39,379 bases of DNA, from contig JANOHV010000226.1 of the NCBI GenBank assembly GCA_031406795.1, positions 1 through 39,379 of the forward strand, written 5' to 3'. The notes below the pieces were generated by a model. The model searched no databases, was not told where the DNA came from, and worked only from the letters and a program-made list of their open reading frames with translations. Positions 8,136 to 31,597 of the stretch are shown here, in pieces (positions within the stretch are counted from its first letter, which is position 1; the number at the start of each line of letters is the position of its first letter). The stretch comes from Candidatus Rokuibacteriota bacterium. Its GTDB lineage: Bacteria; JAUVQV01; DATDCY01. Made by a program: the position numbers and the translations under genes.

Positions 8136-8516
8136 TCACGCGGGGGCGATGCGGTATTCCTGCTGGAGGTAGGCGCCGAGCAGCGCGTCGCGGTCGTCTT
8201 CGGAGATCTCGGTGAACTGCACTCCGTTGCGCCAGGGGCCGTCGTCCTGGCGGTCGACATAAACCACGACCCCCGCGGTCTTGATCGTCCGCTCCCCGAG
8301 AATGATTTCCAGCCGCAGGGTTTCGCCGTGGTCGAGGGGCTGCTCGGATTCGAACATCAACCCGCCGAGGCCCAGGGTCCGGGTGCGCGAAAACTGCGGG
8401 GCGAACTCGCCGCCTTCCGGCGGCTGGCGCCGGTAGGCGACGACATATTCGGCCGCCATGCGCGGATACCGCCGCACGGGGGCCTGTCCCGGGGTCTGCC
8501 GCGATTGATCATCCAT
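8136..8516 (-). CDS. Single-domain PilZ protein
   Basis: RRYPR (RxxxR), TLGLGGLMF in place of D/NxSxGG, G.VVY, GVQF..IS..DR..L. Confidence 0.8.
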   Translation of the reverse strand: MDDQSRQTPGQAPVRRYPRMAAEYVVAYRRQPPEGGEFAPQFSRTRTLGLGGLMFESEQPLDHGETLRLEIILGERTIKTAGVVVYVDRQDDGPWRNGVQFTEISEDDRDALLGAYLQQEYRIAPA

Positions 8517-8524
8517 GCGGGCGG

Positions 8525-8530
8525 ATTATA
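8525..8530 (-). promoter_or_regulatory. -10 box (TATAAT) 8 nt before the PilZ ATG; leaderless candidate
   Basis: Minus strand reads TATAAT-CCGCCCGC-ATG; no SD. Confidence 0.6.
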
Positions 8531-10665: not shown

Positions 10666-10760
10666 AATACCATCTTTTTCTAGTCGGGTATGTCGCGGTG
10701 CGCTGCGGTAGTTGACGCATAAGATTTGGGGAAATCATGGGCGCGGGACAGTGCTGGAAG

Positions 10761-12158
10761 GTGCGTACGGCGATCGTGTCGCTCCTGCTGGGAGCAGCCT
10801 TGGCGCCGGTTCCCGCGCTGGGCTCGTCCGCCGTCAACACCCACAACATCAGTGCCTGTTCCTCCTGCCACGTGGTGACGCCCCGCTTCGGCGTCGACCA
10901 CCGCCATGATGTCACCTTCACCTCCAGCGCCGACGACCCGGGGCTCTGCACCTCCTGCCACCCGGCGGCGGAACACCGGCACCCGATCCTTGTCGTCGCG
11001 GGGTCGGGACCGGCCGGCGCGCTCGTGTCCACCTATCTCCCCGCGGGGACGGCCGCGGCCTTCGCCGGCCAGATCGTCTGCACAAGCTGCCATTTCATCC
11101 ATGCCTCGGATACGCGCTACAGCCTGCTGCGCGGCTTCCCGGGATCCCCCGACCCGCGCAAATTCCGTTCCGTCGCCGCCTTCTGCGAAGAGTGTCACGG
11201 CGCGAATCTGGCGCCGCGCTCGCCGCACGCCGGCGGCGAGAAATCCTGCGGCTTCTGCCACGCCGGGCGACCGCGTCCGGAGCAGAAGGCCGAGGTTCCC
11301 GCCGGGTTCAAGGAGCGCTGCGAACTCTGCCACCGCGGCGTCAAGGACGACCACTTCGCCGGCGTCACCCCCTTCGGCAAGCTCCGGGAGTGCCTCCTCT
11401 GTCACGACCGACACGGGGTCAGCGCCGCCTCGCCCGGTCTGCTCTCCGGCGGCTACCGGGCGGCCGCGGCGGAAAACGTGGTCATCCGCCCGCACTTCCG
11501 CAAGAGTCTCTGCTTCGCCTGCCACACGAACACCGACGACTATGAGCTGCGGAACGCTGATGTGAACGCCTTGTGCGATCGCTGCCACGCCAGCGGCAAG
11601 ATTCTGGCCAACATCCACCCCTTGCGCAGGGTCCCCCCCTCGATCACGGTGCCGAAGGGCTGGCCGCTGACTGATGGCGCGCTGACCTGCCTGACCTGCC
11701 ACGACCAGGGCCACGAGGACCAGCCGCGGCGGCGCTGGATGCTTCACGGCGGGCCTTACGCCACCCCGCGGGCGGTGTGCCGCAACTGCCACAAGACCGC
11801 CGATCTCGAGGCGAGCAGGATCCACCAGGAGATCAACGAGCACAAGTCCTGCGAGATGTGTCACAAGACGCGGCCCCAGCCGGGCAAAGACACGATCAAG
11901 ACGGTGGACTTCATCGCGTCGCCGGATCTGCTCTGCCTGCGCTGCCACGACCAGAGCGCCGCGGACGGCACCGTGCACCACGCGGACGTGCTGGGGCGTG
12001 AGGTCGAGGATGGCCACCTCCCCGCGCAGCTGCCGCTGCTGAAGGGGCGGGTGATCTGTGCCACCTGTCACAATCCGCACCTGCGGGACTCCGACAACGG
12101 GCGCCTGCGAGCATCCATCGCTGGCAGCGACTTCTGCCTGGGTTGCCACCCGGAGTGA
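10761..12158 (+). CDS. Exported multiheme c-type cytochrome, 15 CxxCH motifs
   Basis: Signal peptide MRTAIVSLLLGAALAPVPALG; 15 CxxCH counted, including doubled-CxxCH-type CATCHNPH...FCLGCH. Start could be ATG 10737. Confidence 0.92.
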   Translation: MRTAIVSLLLGAALAPVPALGSSAVNTHNISACSSCHVVTPRFGVDHRHDVTFTSSADDPGLCTSCHPAAEHRHPILVVAGSGPAGALVSTYLPAGTAAAFAGQIVCTSCHFIHASDTRYSLLRGFPGSPDPRKFRSVAAFCEECHGANLAPRSPHAGGEKSCGFCHAGRPRPEQKAEVPAGFKERCELCHRGVKDDHFAGVTPFGKLRECLLCHDRHGVSAASPGLLSGGYRAAAAENVVIRPHFRKSLCFACHTNTDDYELRNADVNALCDRCHASGKILANIHPLRRVPPSITVPKGWPLTDGALTCLTCHDQGHEDQPRRRWMLHGGPYATPRAVCRNCHKTADLEASRIHQEINEHKSCEMCHKTRPQPGKDTIKTVDFIASPDLLCLRCHDQSAADGTVHHADVLGREVEDGHLPAQLPLLKGRVICATCHNPHLRDSDNGRLRASIAGSDFCLGCHPE

Positions 12159-16708: not shown

Positions 16709-16736
16709 TTGACGGCATCGCCGAATCGACTACAAT
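16709..16736 (+). promoter_or_regulatory. Sigma70-type promoter of the chemosensory operon
   Basis: TTGACG (16709-16714), 16 nt, TACAAT (16731-16736). Confidence 0.6.
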
Positions 16737-16759: not shown

Positions 16760-18256
16760 ATGGTGCATGCGGCGATCGATAGAACTGAGCTGGAATACCA
16801 GGCGGTGCGGGATTTCATCGTCCGCAAGACGGGCCTCTACTTCCAGGAGAACAAACGCGACGATCTGCTGACGGTCATCCAGGACCGGCTCGGCGTTCTT
16901 CAGCGTTTCGCCGGCCTTGGCGCCTACCTCGACTTTCTCGAGCGCGAGGAGGACGGCGGCCGCGAGTTGCGCGGCCTCGTCAGCCGGCTCACCGTCGGGG
17001 AGACGTATTTCTTCCGCAACCGCGGCCAGTTCAGCGCGCTTCGCGACGAAATCCTGCCGGAGATCATCAAGCGCCGCCGCGGCAAGAACCAATACCTGCG
17101 CATCTGGAGCGCCGGTTGCTCGACGGGGGAGGAGCCCTACTCCCTGGCGATCCTGCTGCGCGAACTGCTCGGCGACGTCGGCGAGTGGAAGATCCACCTG
17201 CTGGCGACGGACATCAACGAGGACGCGCTCGCGGCCGCCCGCGAAGGCAGCTATCGCAACTGGTCGTTCCGCGAGGTCGAGGAACACTACCGTCAGCAGT
17301 ATTTCACCCCGGAGGGTGATGTTGCGCGGATTCGTCCCGAGGTCCAGTCGATGGTGACCTACCGCTACCTCAACCTCGCCGACGAGCACTACCCGACGGC
17401 GGCGACCGGCACGGACGCACTGGACCTGATTCTCTGCCGCAACGTGATGATCTATTTCCCCCCGGGCCTCTGCCAGGACGTGACACGCCGCTTCTTCGGC
17501 TGTCTCGAGGAGCAGGGCACGCTGCTCGTCGGCCACTCGGAGCACAGCAATCTCGTCTATCCCGGGTTCTCGCGCAGCTTCAGCGGCCGGGCGATCATCT
17601 ACCAGAAGAAAAGCGCCAGCCCGGTCTGGGAGAAGGGGATCGCCATCCGTTTTCGCGGCAGTGGCGCGCCGCCGCCGGGGATCCTGACCCACGAGCCGCT
17701 GGCCGCGCGGCGCGAGGGGCTGCAGCGTCCCACCGGCACCGAGGAGACCCTGCTCTTCGAGCGCGGGGTGCTGCTGGTCGGGCAGATGCGACCGCACGAG
17801 GCGATCGCCGAGTTCAAGCGGGTGCTCGCGTTCAACCCGCGCAACGAGCGCGCGCTCTACTCCGTCGCGATGCTGCTCGCCAACACCGGCAATGCGGCGG
17901 AGGCCGCCGCGTGCGCCGAACAGTTGATTCACCACAACCCGCTGCACCTGGAGGCGACGTATCTTCTGGCGATCCTCGCGCGCGAGACCGGCAGCCCGGC
18001 GCAGGAGCTGTCCCTGCTCAAGAAGACGGTCTACCTTAACCCCGGCTTCGTTCTCGGGCACTTCCAGATGGGACTGCACTACCTGCGCTCGGGCAATGCC
18101 CCGGTCGCCCGGCGCTCGCTGCTCAATGTGCTGCGGATCATGAACGACCGGGAGGCCGGTGACCCGGTCGAGGGCGTCGAGGGGATGACGGTCGGTCGGC
18201 TGCGCGAAACCGTGCTCGCGATGATCCCCGACGGCGTCCCCGGCGGGGCAGACTGA
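16760..18256 (+). CDS. cheR: CheR-type methyltransferase with C-terminal TPR domain (WspC/FrzF-like)
   Basis: [47 protein letters not shown] repeats in the last third. Confidence 0.93.
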
Positions 18257-18888
18257 TGGTTTCCGACATCTGGGAGCAGCGCCGGCGGGAGTCGGAGCGC
18301 GTCTGGGGGGAGATCCGCAGACGCATCGAGCAGCTCGATCACCCGGCGGACAACGCGCCGCCGGCCGAGGAGCTGGCGGCCCTGTGGCGCCGGCGGGCGG
18401 TCGAACTCGCCGATGCGCCCGATCGCGACCGGGAGGCCGGCGAGCTGCTCACGCTGGTGGTGCTGCGGTGGGGCGCCGATCGTTACGCCGTGCCGATCAC
18501 CTCGGTGCGCGAAATCCTGCGGGTCGGCCGCCTGACCGCGGTGAGCACCGCCCCGACCTTCGTGCTCGGCGTGATCAACCTGCGCGGCGTCATCATGACG
18601 GTCCTCGACCTCCGGGTCTTTTTCGGGCTGGAAACCGGTCCGGTCGGGGACGAGGCGCGCATCATCATCGCCGAGGGGGCCGGCATGGTGGTCGGCATCC
18701 TCGTCGAGCAGATCGAGGAGATCGTCGATCTGCCGGCGGCGCAGGTCAAACCGCCGCTCTCTCCGGCCAAGGGCCTGGTCGAAGATTACGTCGTCGGCAT
18801 CGCCGCCCACGGCGACCAGATGGTGGTGCTCATCGATCTCGAAAAGGTGCTCAGCAACCCGCGTATCGTCGTCGACGAAGTGGTCTAG
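18256..18888 (+). CDS. cheW: CheW-domain coupling protein with N-terminal helical extension
   Basis: [44 protein letters not shown]. Confidence 0.92.
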
Positions 18889-18926
18889 CCCCGGGCGGGA
18901 CCAGAGGCCGGCATGAGGAGGAGTGG

Positions 18927-21278
18927 ATGGGTGCAAGAATGAAGCTCGGACCGAAACTGATCGTCTCGCTCGGACTGACCCTGGCCCTGATTCTCGGGTT
19001 GTTCATGTTCGTCATGACCCGCTACCAGCGCCACGGGGCGATCGAGCAGGCTTCCCAGCTGATGCTCACCGTCGGCCAGGCCATCGTCAAGAGCATGGAG
19101 CGCTCGATGCGCCAGGGCGATATGGCGAGCATCCAGGAGATGCTCGAAAGCATGGCCGGCGGCGACATCGCCGGCCTGCGCATCGTCAACTGGGGCCGCA
19201 CCGTCACCCAGAGCGACAAGCCCGGGGAGATCGGCACCCGCGCCGGCGACGCGCTCATCGACGAGGCCTTCCGCACGGGGCTGCCGGTGCGAACGGATCT
19301 CGTGCTGGGCCAGCATCCGGTCCTGCGCCAGGTCTTCCCCCTGCGCAATTCCCCGCAATGCACCGGCTGCCACCGCCAGGTCGGCCCCGGCGCCGTGCTC
19401 GGGGCGGTCGACCTGCACCTGAACATCGACCTGATCGGGCAGCACATCAGCTCGATGACCAAGACGATGTTCCTGTGGTCGGCGGCGATCCTCGTGTTGA
19501 TCATTGGCGCACTGCTCCTTCTGCTCCAGCCCCTCGTTCTCGGCCCGATCTCCGCGCTCTCGCGGGCAGCGACGGCGGCGGCCGACGGGCAGGAGATCGT
19601 CTCCGTTCCGGTGAAGAGCGCCGACGAGATCGGCCAGCTGGCGAACGCCTTCAACACGATGATGCGCAATCTCAAGGACGCGCTCGAGCGCAACGAGAGC
19701 ATCGTGCGCGGGATCGCCGACCCGATGATCGTCGTCAACCAGGACGGCATCGTGACCTTCATGAACGAGCCGTGCGAACGGCTCACCGAACATGGGCGCG
19801 AGGACGTCGTCGGCAAGCTGGCCTGCCGCGAGTTGATGAATTGCGTGGAGTGCCAGGGCGCCTGCGGTCTGCTGCGGCTGGTCAAGACCGGGCAGGACGG
19901 GGGCACCGAGGAGAACACGATCCGCACGCGCAGCGGGCGCTCCGTGCAGACGCTCTCCACCTCCTCCCTGATCCGGGACGCCGCCGGCAACCTGCGCGGT
20001 GCAATCGGCATCTTCCGGGACGTCTCCGTGCAGCGCAAGGCCGAGCGCAAGCTGGCCAACAAGACCTCCTGGACCGAGTCGGTGATCCGCGCCGTCGCCG
20101 ATCCGATGTTCACTGTCGACCAGGAGAAGACCGTGACTTTCGTGAACGAGACCGCGGCGGCGCTCGTCGGCTTCTCGCCCGAGGAGATCGTCGGGCGCAA
20201 GTGCCACGAGATCTTCCGGGGAGCGGTCTGCCGGGAGGACTGCCTCTACGGCCGCGCCCTGCGCACCGGGACCTTCCACGGGGCCGAGCGCGAGGTGATC
20301 AACCGGCGGCAGGAGAACCTGGTCGCGCAGGCCAGCGGCGCGGTGCTGCTCTCCGCGGAGAAGGGCAACGTCGGCTTTCTGGAAATCCTGCGGGACGTCA
20401 CCGAAGAGAAGAAGAACCTGATGAATCTCGTCGAGGTCATCAAGCACGTTCAGGACGCCTCGACCCAGATCCTGAACATCGCCGGCGAGATTCTCTCGAA
20501 CACCGAGGAGCAGAAGAAGAGCATCTCCGAGCAGTCCTCCTCCGTCAAGGAGGTTGCGACCACGATCGAACAGCTGGACATCACGTCGCAGCAGACCGCG
20601 GAGAAGGCCGAAAAGGTCGTGCGTTCCGCGACGAAGTCGGTCGAGGTCTCCAAGGAGGGCCAGAGCGCGGTGCGGGAGGAGATGGAGACGATGCAGCTGA
20701 TCCGCGAGCGCGTCGAGGGGATCGCCCAGCAGATCCTCGGGCTCTCCGAGCAGGCCCAGCAGATCGGCACGATCGTCACCACGGTGAACGACATTGCCGA
20801 GCAGACCAACCTGCTCGCGCTCAACGCCGCGATCGAGGCCGCCCGCGCCGGCGTGCACGGGAAGGGTTTCGCCGTCGTCGCGATGGAGGTCAAGAAGCTC
20901 GCCGAACAGAGTCAGCAGGCCACGGCCCGCATCGGCGCCCTGGTCACCGAGATCCAGAAACAGACCCGGGCCAGCGTCGTCGCCACCGAGGACGGCGCCA
21001 AGGGGGTCGAACTCGGGGTGCGTCTCGCCCTGAAAGCCGGGTCGACGATCGAGAGCGTGATGGCGACGATCGGCGACACCTCCGACGCGGTCCAGCAGAT
21101 CGCCTCGATTGCCAAGCAGCAGTCGGTCGGAATCCAGCAGGTCTCGATCGCGATGGCCAACATCAACGCCGGGATGAAGCAGACGACCACCAGCGCCGAG
21201 AGCCTGCAGCAGGTGGCCGAGGACTTCAACGCCCTGGCAATGGCGCTCCGCAATGTCGCGCGCAAGTACAAGATCTGA
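18927..21278 (+). CDS. Methyl-accepting chemotaxis protein: TM, periplasmic CxxCH sensor, TM, HAMP, 2 PAS, signalling domain
   Basis: CTGCH (19359-19373); [17 protein letters not shown]; two PAS repeats; [37 protein letters not shown]. Confidence 0.93.
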
Positions 21279-23226
21279 GCCGGGGAGTCTCGCAACGGCG
21301 CTCTCGCTCGGGAGCGTGCGCGCGCTGCTGGCCCTGTTCGCCATCGGCACGCTGGTCGGCGTCCTGTCGCTCGTCGAGGGGGCGCAGCTGCGCTCGGAGA
21401 TCAAGCTGCTCGAGGCGACCCGGAGTTTCGAAAAACTGCTCGACGCCGCCGCGGAGGCGGTGCTCGCGTTGGAGCGGCGTCTGGAAGCGGTGCCCGAAGC
21501 AACCGCCGAACCCTGGGCGCTGGAGGTCCAGTCGGTCCGCGACCGACTGCAGGCGCTCGAGGCCGGCGTGCTGCCCGGCGCCCGCTTCCCCGGTCGGCCG
21601 CTGCTCGAGGCGCTCGCCAGGGTCGAGGCCGCCGGACGGCGGGGCGCCCCGGCGCCGACGCCGGCCGAGACGCGGGAACTGCGCACCGCGCTCGCGGAGC
21701 GCTGGAACGTCTTTCACGACGCGGTGCACGAGGAGCTGACCCGGAAGGAGTCCCACCGTCTCTGGCGCATCGGCGAGCGCTCGCGGCAGTACCGCTGGGT
21801 GCTGTTCTTCGTCGGCCTCGCGGCGACGGCGATCCTCGGCGCCGCCATCGCGGTGACGGGCCGCTCGGCGGTGCGCGCCGGCGCTCAGGCGCGGGCGCTG
21901 GTCGCCGGGGATTACCCCGGCGCCGCGGCCCCCGCCGTGAACCGCGGGGATTTCGCCGGACTGCGTGCCGCCCTCGGCGCCGCGGCATCCGCCCTGAGCG
22001 CGGTGGAGGCCGGGCGCCGGCTCGAACAGCTGCGCCACGAGCGCTTCTTCCAGCGCCTGGATTCGGCGCTCAGCGACATCGCCGACGGCCAGAAGGCCCG
22101 TCAGCTCCCGCCGGCCGAGGACCCGGCCTGCGCCGGCGCGCTGAGCGCACTCGGGCGCGTCGTGGAGCGGCTGCACGCCGTCGAGGAGCGGGAGGAACTC
22201 GAGCGTTCCCGCGCCCAGTCGCTCACGGCCGTGCCCCGTGAGGAGATCTTCCAGCTCCACCAGTTCCTGGAACTCGGCGCGCAGGCGCCCGTGGCCTTCG
22301 CGCCCGAGAGCCCGCTGTACGGTCTGGCGCAGCGGGTCGCGGCCGTGGTCGCCCGCAGCCGGCTGTTGGTTTCTCAACTGCAGGACCGTTCGGCCCGCAT
22401 TCTCGAACTCTCGGGTACGCTCTCGGCCGCCATCGTCGACCGTGAAGCGGATTTCCGCCGGGAGTCGCAGCTGATCCACGAGACCTCGACGACCGTCAAC
22501 GAAGTCTCCGTCGCCGCCAAGCAGACCGCCCAGATGGTCGAGTTCGTCTTCCGCTCCTCCCAGGACGCGATGCAGGCCGCCGAGGACGGCCGCGAGTACG
22601 TCCGGCTCACGATCGAAGGCATGGATGTCATCGAGCAGCGCGTGAGCCGGATCGCCGAACAGATTCTGCAGCTCGCGGGGAAATCCCAGGAGATCGGCGC
22701 CATCGTCAAGGCCATCGGGGACCTCTCCAAGCAGACCAATCTGCTCGCCCTCAACGCGGCCATCGAGGCCGCCGGGGCCGGCGAGCACGGCAAGGGGTTC
22801 GCGGTCGTCGCCAAGGAGATCCGCGAACTCGCCGTCAAGAGTTCGCGCTCGACCCGGGACATCCAGCGGATTATCGGCGACATTCAGTCGGCGACCAACT
22901 CCGCGGTCCTCTCCACCGAGGAGGGCACGAAGAGCGTCCACGGCGGCGTGCGCCTCGCGACCTCGCTCAACCTGGCCTTCACCCAGGTGGTCGCGAAATT
23001 CCAGGAAGTCGTCGAGTCGGCGCAGCAGATCTCGACCGCGGCGCAGGAGCAGACCAGCGGCGCGCGGCAGGTGGCCGCTTCGGTCAGCAGCATCGACCAC
23101 ATGGTGCGCACGACCGTCGAGGACCTCAAGGGACTGCGGCACATCCTGGAGGAGTACCAGGGCATCGCCGCGGAACTGGCGGAGATTCTCAACGACACCT
23201 CCTCGACCCGGGGAGCGGTTGCGTGA
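21253..23226 (+). CDS. Methyl-accepting chemotaxis protein with divergent sensor/HAMP region
   Basis: Two hydrophobic segments; [34 protein letters not shown]; start uncertain (GTG 21316 possible). Confidence 0.88.
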
Positions 23227-25583
23227 GTTACCACCCCGACGAGCTCCTCGAGATACTCTCCATCTACAAGGCGGAGACCGAGGAGCACTTGCAGAAGCTC
23301 AATGAGGGGCTCCTGCGCCTGGAGCAGGCGCCGCGCCGCACCGAGACGCTCGAGGAGATCTTCCGCGAGGCCCACAGCCTCAAAGGCGCGGCACGGATGA
23401 TCGGCTTCGAGGCGGTGGAGAAGATCGCCCACGGCCTCGAGGACCTGTTCAGCCTGGCCCGCAAGGGGGAATTGGACTTCGGGCGCCACGTCTTCGACGT
23501 GATCTTCGTCGCCCTCGACGCGATCTCGAAACTGACCACCACCTGGCTCGAGAACCCCGGGGCGCCGTCGCCTCCGGTCGACGATCTGCTCGAACGCCTC
23601 CGCTCCGTGCGCACCCCGGGTTCCGAGCCTCCCGCCACTGTCGCCGCGGCGACACCGGCGCCTGCGGCTCCGCCCCCTCCGGTCGCTCCCGCGCGACCGG
23701 CCGAGCCTGCCCGACCGCGCGCCCCGATCGGGCCGTCCGCGGCGAACGCCGCGTCAGCCGCTGCGGGGGCGCCGCAGCCGAGGAGCGCGACGAGCGCCGC
23801 AGCCGCGGAGCGTACCGCGGATGACCATGCCGCCCCGGTGCCCGAAACGGGCGTGCGGCAGATCGAGGAGACCATCCGGGTCACCACGCAGAAGCTCGAC
23901 GACCTGATGAATCAGATCGGCGAAATTCTCGTCACACGCATCAAGTTCGACGAGCGTCTCGCCGAGATCCGCCTGATCGAGCGGCAGATCGAACAGCTGC
24001 AGGGGTCCTGGATCGCCGTCCGCCGGCGCGCCGGGCAGGGCGCGGACGCCTGGGCGGTGCGGGAGATCGGCGATCGCGTCGCCCGCCTCCAGGACGACAT
24101 CCGACACCTGGCCACCGGGTTCAATGAAGACACGCTGCGCATGACCCTGGTGTCGGGCGAGTTGCAGGATTCGATCAACCGGGTGCGCATGCTGCCGCTC
24201 TCCGCGCTGTTCAATCTTTTCCCGCGCCTGCTGCGCGACATCGCCCGGCAGGAGGGCAAGGAGATCGAGCTGGTCGTCGAAGGCGGCCACGCGCAGCTCG
24301 ACAAGAAGATCATCGAGGAGCTCAAGGACCCGCTGACGCACCTGTTGCGCAACGCGCTGGATCACGGGATCGAAAAACCCGAAGTTCGTCTGCGCGCCGG
24401 CAAGCGGCCGGCCGGGCGCCTGAGGCTCTCGGCAGCGCAGAAGGCGAGCAGCGTCGTCATCGACATCGAGGATGACGGCGCCGGCATCGACCTGGAGCGC
24501 GTCCGCGCCCTGGCGCTGCGCCGGGGCTTCGCCAAGGAGGCGGAGCTGCGGGAGATGACCGACCAGCAGGTGCTCGGCCTGGTCTTCCGGCCGGGGTTCT
24601 CGACCAAGGGCATGATCACCGACCTCTCCGGCCGCGGAGTCGGGCTCGACGTGGTGCTGACGAACATCGAGCGCATGAAAGGGACGATCACCGTCTCCTC
24701 GGTTCCCGGACGCGGGTCGGTCTTCTCGATTCGCCTGCCGATCACGCTGACCACGACCCAGGCGCTGCTGGTCAAGGTTTCCGGGCAGGCTTTCGCGATC
24801 CCGCTCGCCGCCGTCGAAACCATCGGCGAGATCGGCCTCGACCAGGTGACGTCCGTCGAATCGCGCGAAGCGGTGCTGATCGAGGGTGTGCCGACGGCGC
24901 TGGTGCGCCTCCACGAAATCCTGCGCCTCGCGGAGCAATCGGCGGGCCTGGAGGCCGGCGACAAGGTGCCCGTCGTCGTGCTCGGCTCCACGGAGGAGCG
25001 GGTGGCGTTCCTGGTCGACGAACTGCTCGGGGAGCACGAAATCGTCGTCAAGGGGCTCGGGGCGCCGCTGCGGCGGGTGCGCAACGTCTCCGGAGCGACG
25101 ATCGCCGGCGACGGGGCGATCGTGCTCATCCTCAACGTCTTCGACCTGATCAAGGCCTCGCAGAAGGTGCGCGGCCTCTGGCTCGCCGACAAGCGCCGTG
25201 CCGAGGCGGGGCGGCGCGGCAAGTCCCGGGTCCTCGTGGTCGACGACTCGGTGACCACCCGCCTGCTGGAGAAGGGTATACTCGAAAATAATGGGTACGA
25301 AGTGTCGCTCGCGGTGGACGGTGTCGACGCCCTGGAGAAACTCGCGAACGGCGGCTTCGACCTGGTGGTTTCGGACGTGGAGATGCCCCGGATGAACGGG
25401 TTCGAACTCACGCGTCGGTTGCGGAGTCAGGAGGTGTACCGCGAACTGCCGGTGATCCTGGTGACGTCGCTCTCCTCGGAGGAGGACAAGAAGACCGGCG
25501 TCGAAGCGGGCGCCGACGCCTACATTGTCAAAGGCGCCTTCGACCAGGGCAACCTGATCGCCACCATCAGGCAGTTGCTGTGA
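23223..25583 (+). CDS. cheA: Hybrid CheA histidine kinase with C-terminal receiver (WspE/FrzE-like)
   Basis: Hpt [43 protein letters not shown]; CheW domain; REC VVDDS...[10 protein letters not shown]. Confidence 0.96.
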
Positions 25584-26671
25584 GCGCCGTGGAGCGGGAC
25601 TCGAGGGAGGCGGCGCCCACGGCGCGGACGATTCGCGTCCTGGTTGCCGAGGACTCGCTGTTCGCCCGCAGCGTCCTCGTGAAGATCCTCGAGTCCGACC
25701 CCCACATCAAGGTGGTCGGGGTGGCCCGCAACGGCCAGGAGGCCGTGGATCTGGTGCGCTCGCTGCGCCCCGACGTCGTGACGATGGACATCCGCATGCC
25801 GGTCATGGACGGGTTTCAGGCGACGCAGCTGATCATGGCCGAGAACCCGACGCCGATTCTGGTGATCAGCGCCTCGGTCGGCAGCGAGGACCTGAAGATC
25901 TCGTTCAATGCCATTCAGGCCGGCGCGCTCGACATCATCGAGAAGCCGCGCGGCAATCTGCAGTCCGGCTACGAGAAGCTCGGCGCGCAGATCGTGCGGC
26001 GCGTGCACATGGTCGCGGAGATCCGCGTGTTCCGCCATCTCTCGCCACGGCTGCGGCGGCCCATTGCCTGGACGCCGCCCGCGGGCGCCGCGGCGCGGGC
26101 TCCCGAGTTCGTGGTCGCGATCGGGGCTTCCACGGGGGGGCCCTCGGCGCTGCTCTCGATCCTGCAGGCCGCGCCGGCGGGCTTCCCGGCCCCCGTCTTC
26201 ATTACCCAGCACATTTCGGAGGGCTTCGGGCGCGGCTGCGCCGAGTGGCTCGCGCGCAATTCCGCCCTCGAAGTCAAGGTCGCCGAGGACGGGGAGCGGG
26301 TGCGCGCGGGCGTCGTCTACTTCACCCCGGACCGCGGCCTGCTCGAGCTGCGCGGCAAGTGGGCGATCGCGGTGCGCCCGCAGCGCTCCCGGACGGAGCG
26401 CGCGACCATCGACATCATGATCGCCTCGGTCGCCGAGGCCTGGCGCGAACGGACGATTGCCGTGTTGCTCACGGGCATGGGTAACGACGGCGTCGACGGC
26501 CTGCGCCGGGTGAAGGAACTCGGCGGTCGCACCGTGGTTCAGGACGAGAAGACCAGCGTCGTCTGGGGAATGCCGCGTGCCGCGGCGGACGCCGGCGTGG
26601 CCGACCAGGTTCTGGCGCTGGATGACATACCCCAGGCCCTGCTGCGGCTCGTGGCGAGCCCGGCGCGCTGA
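25580..26671 (+). CDS. cheB: Chemotaxis methylesterase/response regulator
   Basis: REC VTMDIRMP; catalytic motifs GASTGG, TQHI, LTGMGNDG; SVVWGMP. Confidence 0.95.
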   Translation: MSAVERDSREAAPTARTIRVLVAEDSLFARSVLVKILESDPHIKVVGVARNGQEAVDLVRSLRPDVVTMDIRMPVMDGFQATQLIMAENPTPILVISASVGSEDLKISFNAIQAGALDIIEKPRGNLQSGYEKLGAQIVRRVHMVAEIRVFRHLSPRLRRPIAWTPPAGAAARAPEFVVAIGASTGGPSALLSILQAAPAGFPAPVFITQHISEGFGRGCAEWLARNSALEVKVAEDGERVRAGVVYFTPDRGLLELRGKWAIAVRPQRSRTERATIDIMIASVAEAWRERTIAVLLTGMGNDGVDGLRRVKELGGRTVVQDEKTSVVWGMPRAAADAGVADQVLALDDIPQALLRLVASPAR

Positions 26672-26685
26672 GGAGAGTTGCGGAG

Positions 26686-28149
26686 ATGAAGATCCTGATT
26701 GCCGAGGACAGTCTGACCCAGGCCACGCTGATGAAGCACGGGCTGCAGCGCGTCGGCTACGAGGTGATCCTCGCGCGCGACGGCATCGAGGCGATCAAGC
26801 GGGCCTGGCAGGAATGCCCGGATCTCGTGGTCTCCGACGTCGTGATGCCGCGCCTCAACGGCTACCAGGTCTGCCGGCTGCTGCGTGACCACCAGAGCAC
26901 CGCGCGGATCCCGGTGATCCTGCTGACGAGCCTCGACCAGCGTCAGGACGCGTTCTGGGGGCTCAAATCGGGCGCGGACAAGTTCATCACCAAGGGCGGC
27001 GACATCCCGGCGATCGTCGCCCAGATCCACGCGTTCGTCGAGGAGCGTGCGCGCGCGGGCGCGGCCGCGGCGCCCGCGCGGGACGCCGCGGCCTGCAGGG
27101 TCGACCTGGACGCGGACGTCATGGAGCGCGTCATCCAGCTGCTCGACAAGAGCCTGTTCGAGTCCACCGTGGCCGCGGAGATCCAGGACCTGGTGAACAT
27201 CCTGGACGATCTGCAGGCGACCGTGCTCGGGGTGCTCGAGATCCTCCGCAAGGTCATCGATTTCCACATCGGGGCCATCCACCTGGGCGGCGAGGAGCAG
27301 CAGGGGCTGTTCGTGCTCGTGAACAAGTCGGTGGACGACCGCTTCATCAGCGTGCTGTGTGAGCAGCTGCAGCGCGAGACGCCGGGAACCGATCCGGGGC
27401 CCGGCTGCGAGCCGGAGATCATCGACCCGCAGCATCTGCTCACCCGGCCGGGGAGCCACCCGCAGCTGCCCGGATCGGTGCTCATCGCGCGCCTGACGAC
27501 CAAAGGCCGCGCGAGCGGCTCGATCGCGATCGCCACCGCGGAGGCGGAGGCCTATCCGGAGCGGGTCGAGCAGACCTTCGAGATGATCGCCCGGCACGCC
27601 AACATCGTCATCGACTACGCGCGCCTCTACGAGAGCACCAAACGGCTCTCCATCACCGACGGGCTGACCAAGCTCTACAATCACCGCTTCTTCCAGGACT
27701 CGCTCAAGCGCGAGTTCGCGCGTTGCCTCAGACATCAGTCCCCGCTGTCGCTGGCGCTGCTCGACATCGACCATTTCAAGAGATTCAACGACACCTACGG
27801 CCACCAGCAGGGCGACATCGTGCTGCAGGAGCTGGCCCGGACGCTGCGGGGGCAGGTGCGCAATCTCGACGTCGTGGCGCGCTACGGCGGCGAGGAGTTC
27901 GCGGTGATCATGCCCGACGCCACGCCGGAGGTCGCGCTGCGCGTGGCCGAGCGGCTGCGCGCCGCCGTCGAGGGGCATCCGGTGGAAGGGCCGACGGGGC
28001 CGCTGCGCGTGACCATCAGTCTCGGCGTGGCCTCGGTCCCACGCGCGGAGATCGGGGTTCCGGCCGGGCTGATCGCCGCCGCAGACCGCGCGCTGTATCG
28101 CGCCAAAGAGCGGGGCCGAAACTGCGTCGCCTCCCAGGAGCAGGGGTAG
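26686..28149 (+). CDS. Response-regulator diguanylate cyclase (REC, GAF-like, GGEEF)
   Basis: REC SDVVMP; TDGLTKLYN, DIDHFKRFNDTYGHQQGD, RNLD I-site, RYGGEEF, ADRALYRAK. Confidence 0.95.
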   Translation: MKILIAEDSLTQATLMKHGLQRVGYEVILARDGIEAIKRAWQECPDLVVSDVVMPRLNGYQVCRLLRDHQSTARIPVILLTSLDQRQDAFWGLKSGADKFITKGGDIPAIVAQIHAFVEERARAGAAAAPARDAAACRVDLDADVMERVIQLLDKSLFESTVAAEIQDLVNILDDLQATVLGVLEILRKVIDFHIGAIHLGGEEQQGLFVLVNKSVDDRFISVLCEQLQRETPGTDPGPGCEPEIIDPQHLLTRPGSHPQLPGSVLIARLTTKGRASGSIAIATAEAEAYPERVEQTFEMIARHANIVIDYARLYESTKRLSITDGLTKLYNHRFFQDSLKREFARCLRHQSPLSLALLDIDHFKRFNDTYGHQQGDIVLQELARTLRGQVRNLDVVARYGGEEFAVIMPDATPEVALRVAERLRAAVEGHPVEGPTGPLRVTISLGVASVPRAEIGVPAGLIAAADRALYRAKERGRNCVASQEQG

Positions 28150-28166
28150 GGGCGGGGAGAACGGCG

Positions 28167-29861
28167 TTGGACGAGCGCAAGCGGATCGGCGAATTGCTCC
28201 TCGACGCCGGCGTCATCACGGCGGAGCATCTGGCCGCGGCCCTGACCGAGCAGAAGCGCTCCGGCGGGCGGCTCTGTTACAACCTGATCCGCCTCGGGCA
28301 CCTGAAGGCCGATGATCTCGTCGGCTTCCTGCGCGACCAGTTCGGGGTGGCGGCGGTCAACCTGGAGCGGTACCAGGTTCCCGAGGCGGTGTTGCGCCTG
28401 ATCCCGGCGGCCTTTGCGCGCGAACGCCACGTCGTGCCGCTGCACGTTCTCGACGGCACCCTGACCGTCGCGCTGCTCGACCCCTCCCGCGCCGATGACA
28501 TCACGGCGATCCGCGATCTGACCGGCCTGGAGCCCGAGCCGGTGATCTGCCCGGAGGCCGCGCTCGAAGCGGCGCTGTTGCGCTTCTATCCGCTGGAGCC
28601 CCCGGTCGCCGCGCGGGGCGAAGGGGTGCTTGAACTCGACGAGGAACGGGACGCGCGCCCGGCGGCCCCGGCCGATGCGCCGGCGGTCCTCTCGGCGGAG
28701 GACTGGCTGCGCCGCATCGTTCTGCAGGCGGTGCGGCGGCGCTCGCGCGAGATCCACCTCGAGGCGTCCGAAGCCGGGCTGCGTGCGCGCTATCGCGTGC
28801 GCGGCATGCTGCAGGACGGCGAGACCGCGCCGCCCGAGACGCGCCGCGAGATCACGCGGCGCGCGCTGGCGATCGCCGGCGTTGCGGCCGGCGCGCCCGG
28901 CGGCGCGCCCGGGGAAGGCCGCTTCCGGATTCATGTACGCGGCCGCTGGCTGCGCGCGACGCTCTCGGCGTTTCCGACGCTCTTCGGCGAGCGGCTGGTC
29001 ATCCGGATCGTCGACGAGAGTCTGCTGGCCCGGGAGTTTCAGGAACTCGGGATGTCGAAGGAAGTCGCCGACGAGGCGCAGCGGCTGCTCGCCTTCCGGC
29101 ACGGCGTGCTGCTGGTCAACGCGCCTCCCGGACAGGGCCGCCGCACGACGTTCTACAGCATGCTCGCCCACCTCAGGGGGGAGGGCGGGCGGAACATCAT
29201 GACCCTGGAGAGCCCGGTGCGCTTCCCGATCGCCGGCATCAGCCAGTCGCAGATCGGTGGCGCGACCGGGCTGGACTACGCGGCCGGCCTGCAGTCGATT
29301 CTGCACCAGGAGCCTGACGTCGTCGGCCTCACCGATGTGCCCGACCGCGCCACACTCGAGATGGTCTTCGCCGCCGGGAGGCGCTGTCTCGTCGTTGCGC
29401 TCTGCGGCTTTCGCGACAACCGGCAGGCGCTCGACTGGGTCAAGGACGCCGGGGTCAGCGCCGCAACGCTGGGTCTGCTGCTGCGCGGCATTCTCGCGCA
29501 GCGGCTGCTGCCGAAGATCTGCAGCGCCTGCCGGGAGCCGCTCGCCGAGCCCGTGCGGCTGGTCGAGGGTATCCGGGGCCACGGGGTCGAGGAACTCACC
29601 TTCTACACCGGCGCCGGGTGCGAGCAGTGCGGCGGCTCGGGGCGCGCCGGGCGGGTGGCCATCTTCGAGTTGCTCTCCTTCCGCGAGGACCTGCGCGACC
29701 GTCTGCTGCGCGGGGATCCCTCGCAGTTGCTCGTCGAGGAGGCAGAGCGACTCGGCATGTGGTCCCTGCGGGAGGACGGGCTGCTCAAGGCCTCCCAGGG
29801 GCTCGTGGACATCCGAGAGGTGCTCGAGGCCACCGCCGCCGACGGGTCAATCCCCGGGTGA
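28167..29861 (+). CDS. GspE/PilB-family ATPase homolog with N-terminal MshEN domain and degenerate catalytic motifs
   Basis: TTG 28167 after GGGGAG; RIGELLLDAGVIT...LAAALTEQ; PT.FGER.VIRI; AQRL...ICSAC; GCEQC..SG..GRVAIFELL; Walker A reads APPGQGRRTT. Confidence 0.88.
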   Translation: MDERKRIGELLLDAGVITAEHLAAALTEQKRSGGRLCYNLIRLGHLKADDLVGFLRDQFGVAAVNLERYQVPEAVLRLIPAAFARERHVVPLHVLDGTLTVALLDPSRADDITAIRDLTGLEPEPVICPEAALEAALLRFYPLEPPVAARGEGVLELDEERDARPAAPADAPAVLSAEDWLRRIVLQAVRRRSREIHLEASEAGLRARYRVRGMLQDGETAPPETRREITRRALAIAGVAAGAPGGAPGEGRFRIHVRGRWLRATLSAFPTLFGERLVIRIVDESLLAREFQELGMSKEVADEAQRLLAFRHGVLLVNAPPGQGRRTTFYSMLAHLRGEGGRNIMTLESPVRFPIAGISQSQIGGATGLDYAAGLQSILHQEPDVVGLTDVPDRATLEMVFAAGRRCLVVALCGFRDNRQALDWVKDAGVSAATLGLLLRGILAQRLLPKICSACREPLAEPVRLVEGIRGHGVEELTFYTGAGCEQCGGSGRAGRVAIFELLSFREDLRDRLLRGDPSQLLVEEAERLGMWSLREDGLLKASQGLVDIREVLEATAADGSIPG

Positions 29862-30373
29862 GCGGCCCGGCGCTGCTCCTCCTGGCCCTGCTCGCGACCT
29901 GCGGATGCGCGGCAGCGCCCGTGTCCGTGGCGCCCGTCGGCCCGCCGGTGCTCGGGAATCGGCCGGAGAGCGGGGGGGCGGCGTTCCTCGGCAGCGAGGT
30001 CTGCCGCGCCTGTCATCAAACGGCGTACGATCGCTGGCGCGCAACTGCACACGCAAGCGAGTACACCGGACTGTCGCCGGCCGACCGGCAGCGTTCCGCC
30101 TGCCTGCGCTGTCACGTCACCGGCTATGGCGAGCGGTTCGGGTATCGGGCGACCGGCGCCGGCCCCGACCTGGCGAACGTCGGCTGCGAAGCCTGCCACG
30201 GACCCGGAGCCGACCACGGGCGCAGCGCCCATCCGGAACTGGTGCCGACGCTGACCGGCGGGGCGTGCCCCCCCTGTGAGGTCAACAAACTCTGTCGTCT
30301 CTGCCACACGCCGGAGCGCTCCCCGGCGTTCGACCTCGAGCGTGCGCTGACCCAGATCAGCTGTAAGTCGTGA
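29858..30373 (+). CDS. Tetraheme cytochrome c554-like protein, probable lipoprotein
   Basis: GTGA overlap with the previous stop; LLLLALLATCGC signal/lipobox; CRACH, CLRCH, CEACHGPG, CRLCH. Confidence 0.88.
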   Translation: MSGPALLLLALLATCGCAAAPVSVAPVGPPVLGNRPESGGAAFLGSEVCRACHQTAYDRWRATAHASEYTGLSPADRQRSACLRCHVTGYGERFGYRATGAGPDLANVGCEACHGPGADHGRSAHPELVPTLTGGACPPCEVNKLCRLCHTPERSPAFDLERALTQISCKS

Positions 30374-30516: not shown

Positions 30517-30525
30517 TGCTATAAT
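30517..30525 (+). promoter_or_regulatory. Extended -10 promoter (TG-C-TATAAT), near-leaderless
   Basis: TGCTATAAT ends 10 nt before ATG 30536. Confidence 0.65.
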
Positions 30526-30535
30526 CCGCCGAGTA

Positions 30536-31597
30536 ATGGAAGTGACACCGACGCAGCTGATCGCGCTCCTTCGGGAGGGGACCGCACCGCTCAAGGTTCG
30601 CGCTGCTGTCGCCCGCGGTCTGCTTCCGCTGCCGCCGGCGACTCTGCTGGAATCGCTGGACATTCTTGCCGACGATCCCGACGCCGCCATCCAGGCCGAG
30701 GCGCTGGCCGGCCTCGAGCGGTTGCCGGCGACCGTCGTGCGCGGGGTCGCGTCGTCCCGCACGCTCGCCCCGGGGCTGCTCGGGCGGCTGGCCCGGCGCT
30801 ACCCGGGGAATGAGCCGGTGCTGCTGGACATCGTCCGCAACAGCGCCGCCGACGACGCCACCGTGGCCTTCATCGCCTCGCTGCCGTTTCCGTCGGCGCT
30901 CGAGGTGATCGGCCGCAACCAGGCGCTGCTCGAACGCTCGCCGGAGGCCGTGGCCGCGCTGTTCTCGAACCCCGCGACCCCGACGTCGGTCGTCCAGCTC
31001 TGGCAGGAGCACGTGGAGCGCCGGGCGACCGCCGCGGCCGGCGCCGCCGTCGCCGATATGACCGTCGCGGTGGACCCCCGGTCGTTCGCGCCGGTGCTCG
31101 TCGAGGAAGAAGAGAAAGCCGAGGAACCGGCGGCGCGCGCCTTCTCGACGGAGGCCGACGACGCGCTCAGCGCCAAGCAGCTCTCGATCTACGCGCTGCT
31201 CAAGAAGATGTCGATGGGCCAGAAGGTGGCTCTGGCCGTCAAGGGCAACCGCGAAGTGCGCAACATCCTGATCCGGGAGAACAACCGGATGCTCTGCCTC
31301 AAGGTGCTCGAGAACCCGCGGCTCAGCGACACCGACATCGAAGCGTACGCGAAAAGCACGAACCTCTCGGACGACGTGCTGCGCGGGATCGCGAACCAGA
31401 AGGAGTGGTGCAAGAAATACGCGATCGTCAAGGCGCTCGTCTTCAACCCCAAAGCGCCGCTCGGGGTGACGCTCGAGTTCGTCAAACGGCTGACGCTCAA
31501 GGATATCGAATTCCTGTCGAAGAACCGCAACGTGCCGGAAACACTGCGCACCACCGGGCGCAGGCTGCTGGCGCTCAAGCGCGAGTCGAACCGCTGA
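30536..31597 (+). CDS. Hypothetical alpha-helical (HEAT/LRV-like repeat) protein
   Basis: Good codon bias; repeated (L/V).NP motifs ([23 protein letters not shown]); no catalytic motif recognised. Confidence 0.8.

Follow-up and report, generated by a model that had tools for sequence, protein, structure and literature searches.

A Wsp-type chemosensory operon of an uncultured Rokubacterium places a catalytically decayed PilB-like protein between a diguanylate cyclase and a tetraheme cytochrome

Non-motility chemosensory pathways are common in genomes, and few of them have a known readout. The Wsp system of Pseudomonas aeruginosa (WspA-F and WspR, with the two CheW-like couplers WspB and WspD) is encoded in one operon without CheY or flagellar genes. 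It combines a membrane methyl-accepting chemotaxis protein (MCP), a CheR with TPR repeats, a hybrid CheA-REC kinase, CheB and, as its output, a REC-GGDEF cyclase with an I-site. Here we analyze a nine-gene operon (16760-30373, + strand) that has this same content and lies on a 39,379-nucleotide contig of a Candidatus Rokuibacteriota bacterium (JANOHV010000226.1, 69% G+C; the whole contig is called the window below), whose metagenome-assembled genome is in 278 contigs with a rated completeness of 99.9%. On balance, and with some reserve, we read it as a Wsp-type (alternative-function) operon that turns a periplasmic or cytoplasmic redox or nitric oxide (NO) signal into cyclic di-GMP (c-di-GMP), with a PilB-like pseudoenzyme as the local c-di-GMP receptor or adaptor. 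The likeness to Wsp is drawn from gene and domain content. The window has a single CheW besides the CheW-like domain of CheA, whereas Wsp has two CheW-like proteins, and it has two MCPs, one of which combines Cys-rich PAS domains with a periplasmic sensor of the c-heme type. In addition, the cyclase of the window contains a GAF domain, and the operon has two extra genes, for the decayed PilB-like MshEN protein and for a tetraheme lipoprotein.

Other described systems share parts of this arrangement. In the Esn network of Geobacter sulfurreducens (EsnA, MCP; EsnB, CheW; EsnC, CheA; EsnD, REC-GGDEF; PMC5585712, PMC6456294), a chemosensory array is likewise wired to a c-di-GMP cyclase, in a host rich in multiheme cytochromes, and the network is linked to respiration of extracellular acceptors. 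However, the genes of this network are scattered, its MCP lacks a periplasmic domain and carries a GAF domain in the cytoplasm, and the excerpts of these two papers used here report no co-encoded receptor or cytochrome. DgcJ and NfrB of E. coli are described as a specific cyclase paired with an MshEN-bearing glycosyltransferase for local output (PMC8669469). NfrB is an active glycosyltransferase according to that account, whereas the candidate effector in the window is a decayed motor ATPase with no evident enzymatic output, and the window cyclase would be driven by a chemosensory kinase. The MshE/PilB-type ATPases (Vibrio MshE, Myxococcus PilB, Thermus PilF), as far as the consulted sections of the literature describe them, have the same MshEN N1 domain, N2 domain, ATPase core and Cys4 zinc site as the window protein, and the same tandem 24-residue c-di-GMP motif with a 5-residue spacer. 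The window family differs from them in lacking the Walker B Glu, the His box and the Asp box, in its decayed Walker A and in a Cys for the third-position Gly of motif II; its gene adjoins a cyclase instead of pilus or secretion genes, and its PilB and GspE scores are far under the equivalogue cut-offs. In the literature, judged mostly by titles and the openings of abstracts, no account was found of a chemosensory cyclase that is co-encoded with a decayed PilB/GspE paralogue (supplementary survey tables could hold such clusters), and the excerpt used of a review of PilB cofactors (PMC11656802) held nothing relevant on an inactive paralogue.

The original prediction, made by a model from the letters of the window, had described nine co-oriented genes with gaps under 40 bp behind one promoter, in a Wsp-type architecture with no stand-alone CheY and no flagellar or pilus structural gene. 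This anatomy was borne out (Table 1), with one CheW where Wsp has two. Open reading frames (ORFs) and Pfam matches, with E-values for the operon proteins from 2e-17 (MshEN) to 2e-57 (CheB), place all nine genes on the + strand, flanked by a divergent PIN-TRAM gene and an unnamed gene. The first five junctions, in gene order, are a 1-nt overlap, a 38-bp gap, a 26-bp overlap and two 4-bp overlaps; these are followed by gaps of 14 bp (cheB-cyclase) and 17 bp (cyclase-ATPase) and by a 4-bp GTGA overlap (ATPase-cytochrome). No free REC gene fits between genes so packed, and the cluster holds none, nor any gene for a pilin, a platform protein or a flagellum; the T2SSF platform genes of the genome sit on other contigs, adjoining three intact ATPases. 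The site ahead of cheR is one of two promoter-like sites found in 18.5 kb, where shuffles give 0.7, while terminator-like sites show no excess within the region (7, with 7.1 expected from shuffles). For MCP1, the longest naive ORF (18923..21739) was rejected as being in the wrong frame and without a Pfam match; the true frame is that of ORF 18384..21278, with an ATG start at 18927 that is preceded by a GAGGAGGAG site.

Table 1. Features of the chemosensory operon and its boundaries, in positions of the window.
Feature	Coordinates	Strand	Description
Promoter-like site TTGACG-16-TACAAT	16709..16736	+	24 bp 5' of cheR; 10/12 consensus matches
cheR-TPR	16760..18256	+	498 aa; PF01739 8e-51; TPR_16, TPR_2, TPR_17 at residues 330-448
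cheW	18256..18888	+	210 aa; PF01584 6e-32
MCP1	18927..21278	+	transmembrane segment, periplasmic c-heme sensor (CTGCH), transmembrane segment, HAMP, two Cys-rich PAS, MCP signalling domain
MCP2	21253..23226	+	receptor with two transmembrane segments, PF00015 1e-38; no assignment for periplasmic region; topology from translation
cheA-REC hybrid	23223..25583	+	Hpt, dimerisation, HATPase, CheW-like, REC; without P2 domain (Pfam)
cheB methylesterase with REC	25580..26671	+	PF01339 2e-57; NF001965 337.6 bits, cut-off 293
REC-GAF-GGEEF diguanylate cyclase	26686..28149	+	GGDEF 2e-47, REC 3e-21
MshEN-PilB/GspE-like pseudo-ATPase	28167 (TTG)..29861	+	564 aa; T2SSE 2e-54, MshEN 2e-17
Tetraheme c-type cytochrome lipoprotein	29858 (GTG)..30373	+	171 aa; PF13435 2e-13
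Extended -10 element TGcTATAAT	30517..30525	+	operon boundary; ends 10 nt before ATG of gene 30536-31597

The homologues of the PilB-like protein form a family that runs from 100% down to about 51% identity, followed by a break to genuine PilB at 33% or less. We compared 60 family proteins with 59 PilB proteins and found the catalytic residues lost across the family and the zinc site retained (Table 2), as would be expected of the non-catalytic PilB/GspE paralogue that had been proposed; R208 and R210 are kept in all 58 members with a residue at these positions (the other two of the 60 are gapped). In the window protein, Walker A reads APPGQGRRT, the Asp box TLESPVRF, Walker B EPDVVGLTDVPD and the His box LVVALCGFRDN. 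It scores 289.7 bits on PilB (TIGR02538, cut-off 675.65) and 266.3 bits on GspE (TIGR02533, cut-off 630.25), where the other che-adjoining ATPase of the genome reaches 554 and 547 bits on the same NCBIfam models, and it is the weakest full-length match among the 15 T2SSE hits of the genome, five of which are strong. By these scores the protein falls outside the PilB and GspE equivalogues. Its family is lineage-restricted. The ratio of non-synonymous to synonymous substitution rates (dN/dS) of its gene is 0.13-0.19 across five relatives (0.15-0.26 for the cyclase), and the gene is under purifying selection, not decaying.

Table 2. Catalytic and zinc-site residues in the window protein's family and in PilB.
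Position	Family	PilB
Walker A first Gly	Ala 59/60	Gly 59/59
Walker A Lys	R 38, K 18, G 3, S 1	Lys 59/59
Walker A Thr	kept 3/60	Thr 59/59
Asp-box Asp	kept 1/60	Asp 59/59
Walker B catalytic Glu	D 57, E 2, A 1	Glu 59/59
His-box His	kept 0/60	His 59/59
Four zinc-site Cys	kept 60/60	kept 59/59

One protein, P0063 (972 aa; GGDEF, MshEN and T2SSE in precomputed Pfam), was considered as a Rosetta-stone fusion and rejected. As matching and garbled stretches alternate in its alignment, it is most likely a frameshifted call spanning adjacent cyclase and ATPase genes, and it was left out of the family set.

The c-di-GMP determinant of MshEN domains is described as two 24-residue motifs joined by five residues, with the motif I consensus RLGxx(L/V/I)(L/V/I)xxG(L/V/I)(L/V/I)xxxxLxxxLxxQ (PMC5013675). 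In the window protein, residues 6-29 (RIGELLLDAGVITAEHLAAALTEQ) form motif I and are followed by the spacer KRSGG, both in full agreement with the consensus; motif II is RLCYNLIRLGHLKADDLVGFLRDQ, with R35, G44, L51, L55 and Q58 kept. The N-terminus is absent from seven family rows, and motif counts are therefore over 53 members: R6 is found in 52, G8 in 53 and Q29 in 45, with Lys in the other 8. A model of the 53-residue c-di-GMP motif (NF053729) matches residues 6-58 at 53.8 bits (cut-off 38), and PF05157 matches at 63.3 bits (cut-off 23.1). Residues 6-58 are also the most conserved segment of the family, with a mean pairwise identity of 0.74 compared to 0.68 for the core and 0.65 for N2 (53 full-length members). 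The order is reversed in the PilB set, with the core (0.87) and N2 (0.88) above the motif region (0.71); as the sets are unmatched in divergence, the comparison is one of rank order alone. Constraint in this family has thus shifted to the N-terminus, and c-di-GMP binding by the protein is plausible from its motifs, with no claim of high affinity.

The gene directly upstream encodes a cyclase with every sequence mark of an active c-di-GMP synthase. D51 of the receiver, the I-site R392-x-x-D395, D377 and the GGEEF at 401-405 are invariant in 13/13 cyclase orthologues, in line with the c-di-GMP synthesis originally predicted. By a published rule, Asp at the Hypr-Ser position together with GGEEF denotes a diguanylate cyclase (PMC6456294), and a Hypr (cyclic GMP-AMP-making) GGDEF was ruled out by Asp377 together with GGEEF. 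Pfam calls no domain between REC and GGDEF. An AlphaFold model of residues 136-322 (predicted local distance difference test score (pLDDT) 82, predicted template modelling score (pTM) 0.78) matches GAF domains almost exclusively (probability 0.9-1.0, TM 0.4-0.56), including those of DosS/DosT, PDE2A/5A, phytochromes and an HD-GYP protein, so the GAF label given to this stretch beforehand is right at the fold level. A complex prediction with alignments for cyclase residues 120-487 and the full ATPase-like protein gave 0.00 against a mark of 0.32; controls were not run, and the result weighs neither way.

At the sensor end, MCP1 matches HAMP, PAS_9 (7e-27) and MCPsignal (1e-38) in Pfam. A four-sequence profile was needed for its periplasmic domain, because the N-terminal half used as a single sequence against PDB gave 3B47 at E = 0.018 only. 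The profile, made from four orthologues, matches 3B47 (4.6e-8) and 3B42 (5.3e-6), and the CXXCH motif lines up in both. MCP1 has no match to the Pfam DUF3365 model at E <= 0.01 and reaches PF21563 at 2e-4 only, under the model cut-off. The two structures are the sensor domains of the Geobacter heme-c MCPs GSU0582 and GSU0935. A 2026 preprint, as excerpted here, assigns them to a heme-bearing Cache family (sCache_heme) and describes the members fused to signalling modules as NO sensors, not O2 sensors (PMC12889525). Unlike these receptors, MCP1 also has two Cys-rich cytoplasmic PAS domains and would feed a cyclase pathway. The CXXCH is kept in 4/4 MCP1 orthologues, as are the patterns C-x5-C-x2-C-x3/4-C in PAS1 and C-x8-C-x3-C in PAS2, down to 62% identity. 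The heme and Cys-cluster inputs that had been proposed are thus real as domains, and the patterns make it plausible that the PAS domains hold a metal or Fe-S site.

Gene order in relatives and the signals around the last two genes bear on whether these belong to the operon. Beyond the window, the family was found at 16 loci (L001-L003, L022, L024-L034, L037). A cyclase orthologue lies immediately upstream of the family gene in 15/15 loci with room (L034 has none), and a cytochrome orthologue lies immediately downstream in 10/10 loci with room. The cyclase-ATPase spacer, 17-24 nt long, holds a GGGGAG-like ribosome site and no -10-like element. In contrast to this, the 162-bp spacer 3' of the cytochrome holds the element TGnTATA(A/C)T-N10-ATG in 6/6 closer loci, the rest of the spacer not being conserved. 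RNA evidence is thin and comes from one metatranscriptome library (X4, 0.16 of sampled words) of a close relative, in which DNA carry-over is possible: contigs of 159-315 nt map to cheB, the cyclase, the ATPase gene, the cytochrome and the next gene, and one, over 29804-30022, bridges the ATPase-cytochrome junction with 14 differences.

A more distant genome of the same class but another family (G001, 77% complete, with the locus on a 361-kb contig) has cheW, MCP1 (50%), MCP2, cheA (47%), cheB, the cyclase (51%) and the cytochrome (43%). There the cytochrome comes directly after the cyclase, with a 4-bp overlap if the TTG start is right, and the next gene is an isocitrate/isopropylmalate dehydrogenase. 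No ATPase-like gene lies between them, and the best matches to the ATPase-like protein in G001 are at the level of paralogues (26-32% identity over long stretches, and 40% over one N-terminal stretch of 136 residues). As cyclase and cytochrome are adjacent in G001, they form the older pair, and in the window the ATPase-like gene sits inside an older transcription unit; its place could reflect either a gain in the window lineage or a loss in G001, and six genomes do not decide between the two. Since the conserved -10 element occurs only after the cytochrome, and the next gene is set apart in G001, cheR and the cytochrome gene are most likely the first and the last gene of the transcription unit.

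The same comparison bears on the cytochrome, which had been predicted to be the redox partner or cargo of the ATPase. G001 keeps it beside the cyclase without an ATPase gene, so the cargo role was rejected, a partnership with the cytoplasmic ATPase-like protein is argued against as well, and the cytochrome belongs to the sensing cluster. Its four CXXCH motifs (CRACH, CLRCH, CEACH, CRLCH), through which heme attachment is predicted, and its G/A-C lipobox are kept in 9/9 orthologues. The simplest idea is that it acts as a periplasmic redox relay to the MCP1 heme. As a side observation, its domain has a match of 3e-28 to NF041198 ('UshA-like (seleno)protein'), over the last 116 positions of that NCBIfam model, which means that the tetraheme module is also fused to a nucleotidase-like protein elsewhere.

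Put together, the pathway we favor would run as follows. MCP1 would sense via its covalent periplasmic c-heme and the two Cys-rich cytoplasmic PAS domains, with MCP2 as a second input, and both receptors would be adapted by CheR-TPR and CheB. CheA-REC would phosphorylate Asp51 of the cyclase, and the REC-GAF-GGEEF protein would then make c-di-GMP. The PilB-like protein, which has kept its zinc site, arginines and MshEN motif, would most likely be the operon's own non-hydrolysing c-di-GMP receptor or adaptor. Its ligand-bound form would act by protein contacts, for example with one of the genome's five intact PilB/GspE-type machines or with an exopolysaccharide pathway; that it gates a pilus or type II secretion is conceivable as pure conjecture. 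The tetraheme lipoprotein, as an older member of the cluster, would most likely couple the heme sensor to the periplasmic electron pool. A receptor with heme and Cys clusters together with a tetraheme cytochrome suggests surface or biofilm behavior tied to electron-acceptor status.

The operon has a clean anatomy, and the family of the PilB-like protein is both real and conserved. This family is confined to one uncultured clade, and its ligand binding is uncertain. Several observations weigh against the reading just given. The third position of motif II is Cys37 in 53/53 members, where PilB has Gly in 59/59. In GSPII-A of Thermus PilF, the equivalent Ala obstructs the pocket and the A41G change is needed for high affinity, and the authors put weight on this glycine in the sections used here (PMC12002112). 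As Cys replaces this Gly, c-di-GMP binding may be weak, conditional or lost, which undercuts the high-affinity receptor of the original prediction. The Walker A Lys survives in 18/60 members, and nucleotide binding may therefore still be possible in a deeper subfamily. A search for longer proteins found no fused cyclase-ATPase protein and gave one distant PilB-like protein with a secretin domain (30% identity). No contig of the metatranscriptome library bridging the cyclase-ATPase junction (28149-28167) was found, uncovered parts being uninformative. The G001 cluster without an ATPase-like gene indicates that this gene is dispensable for the pathway. Lastly, the co-occurrence of the last two genes with the che cluster, which had been proposed as a check, stood in every assessable related locus, but all 16 loci are from one order-level clade. 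The housekeeping genes hisG and phoH are syntenic there too (6/6 loci with room), and synteny alone is for this reason weak and may be inherited gene order.

One alternative is a merely inherited neighborhood, in which c-di-GMP acts on distant receptors and the PilB-like gene is an unrelated degenerate paralogue (such as a regulatory subunit of a pilus or secretion machine) that landed once and stayed by phylogenetic inertia. The restriction to one clade, in which hisG and phoH are equally syntenic, fits this view. So do the presence of the family in 5 of the 6 genomes of the phylum that were compared and the G001 cluster, which lacks the gene. Other receptors also exist, given the 8 MshEN matches in the genome and a PilZ gene 8 kb upstream. 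Nevertheless, we consider this explanation unlikely. The ATPase-like gene sits between two genes that are adjacent in G001, with so short a gap on one side, an overlap on the other and no promoter-like element that it hardly escapes co-transcription; a conserved promoter element marks the operon boundary only after the cytochrome; and the c-di-GMP motif is the most constrained part of a protein encoded beside a c-di-GMP synthase.

The PilB-like protein could also be an input or a scaffold, informing the receptors or CheA of the state in which a pilus or secretion machine is, or feeding c-di-GMP levels back to them, and so tuning the pathway instead of executing its output. In Myxococcus xanthus, ATPase-deficient PilB still signals, upstream of the Dif chemosensory pathway, with signalling proposed to come from the nucleotide-free form, according to the parts of that report used here (PMC5544727). 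This precedent is what lets us suppose that a pseudoenzyme passes its state on, and it allows the reverse wiring equally. The Che-PilB pairing also recurs in the genome, in a second cluster (C111, L039 3562-10730) with cheR, an MCP, cheW, cheY and a cheA that includes a P2 domain. Directly after it comes an MshEN-T2SSE ATPase that is intact and whose best NCBIfam match is TfpB (656 bits, under the cut-off of 850). Sequence does not tell input from output, a place after the cyclase suits a downstream reader at least equally well, and the cyclase has its own I-site for feedback; we regard an input role as improbable. That the protein is still an enzyme, with slow ATP hydrolysis by way of Asp for the Walker B Glu powering a small export or assembly step, possibly for the lipoprotein cytochrome, appears very improbable: the Walker A pattern [AG]x4GK in 18/60 members, the retained arginines and zinc site and the translational coupling to the cytochrome gene speak for it, but the window protein has Arg-Arg where Lys-Thr is expected, the other catalytic residues are gone from nearly all members (Table 2), no platform (T2SSF), secretin or pseudopilin gene is nearby, and in G001 the cytochrome is still in position, with a lipoprotein signal of its own, where no ATPase gene is present; it needs only Sec, Lol and Ccm.

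With the local receptor or adaptor as our preferred reading, Cys37 admits one further step. The Cys is invariant across the family, which suggests that it is functional, at least as judged from the alignment. Tentatively, and with considerable doubt, we propose that it makes c-di-GMP reading dependent on thiol redox state, in a self-contained module that senses, synthesizes and reads. In this view, a motor ATPase was turned into a signalling pseudoenzyme and inserted into a redox/NO-sensing Wsp-type operon, with the cyclase gene on one side and the cytochrome gene on the other. It would combine the c-di-GMP signal with that of the redox state of the cytoplasm and then act on one of the pilus or secretion machines of the cell or on the synthesis of exopolysaccharide.

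A question raised by c-di-GMP networks is how outputs can be specific when the messenger is a single diffusible molecule. In this operon a single transcription unit encodes a sensor, a kinase, a cyclase and a candidate receptor, the last being a conserved motor protein with decayed catalytic motifs. The reuse of degenerate enzymes as receptors is known from GGDEF/EAL proteins such as FimX. If c-di-GMP is bound by the PilB-like protein, this pattern would reach the secretion ATPase superfamily, and the operon would offer a compact system for the in vitro study of local signalling. It is also one of few functional leads on signalling in Rokubacteria, an abundant uncultured phylum of soil and sediment.

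The genome has five CheA genes. The closest paralogous cluster (C173, L040 1383-13254) is also Wsp-like, with CheR-TPR, two CheW, an MCP, CheA-REC (40% identity) and CheB; it lacks both a cyclase and an ATPase, and its last genes encode a REC-histidine kinase and a REC-PAS-kinase-REC-REC hybrid. In C111, a convergent MCP with a phosphonate-binding domain adjoins the che cluster. An independent cyclase-MshEN-ATPase adjacency occurs in an unrelated, unclassified metagenome-assembled genome (L005, 7933-12517), where a REC-GGDEF gene overlaps the start of an intact MshEN-T2SSE ORF (913 aa, 27% identity to the window protein), with two multiheme cytochrome genes upstream and V-type ATPase genes downstream. 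At one of the family loci (L003, on a 1.46-Mb contig), tblastn hits to nearly every cluster gene come in two or three pieces in different frames; these splits look like insertion/deletion errors of a long-read assembly, not broken genes.

The flanks of the operon in the window are of a housekeeping kind (queA, tgt, yajC, secDF, malic enzyme, ispDF, hisG, phoH, ppdK). The PilZ gene mentioned above encodes a stand-alone PilZ-domain protein (8136-8525, - strand, about 8 kb 5' of the operon), and a larger multiheme cytochrome (10737-12158, + strand; Paired_CXXCH, c7 and c3 families) lies with it 5-8 kb 5' of the operon. Downstream, gene 30536-31597 (353 aa, without a Pfam or NCBIfam hit) adjoins hisG in all relatives, including G001. 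Its nearest Atlas clusters are unnamed Acidobacteriota and Myxococcota families, one with HEAT repeats in a minority of members. It was considered as a tenth operon member and rejected: it has its own conserved promoter-like element, belongs to a broad unnamed family and, in G001, lies 7.5 kb off with hisG. As the -10 element ends 10 nt before its ATG, with conserved spacing, its transcript is suggested to be leaderless or nearly so. Within those 7.5 kb of G001, between the cytochrome and the unnamed gene with hisG, are a Mutator-family transposase, a cyclic nucleotide-binding protein and a class-II-like phosphodiesterase (L053, G001:C5, 5315-6613), and the cytochrome-hisG region is rearranged in one of the lineages.

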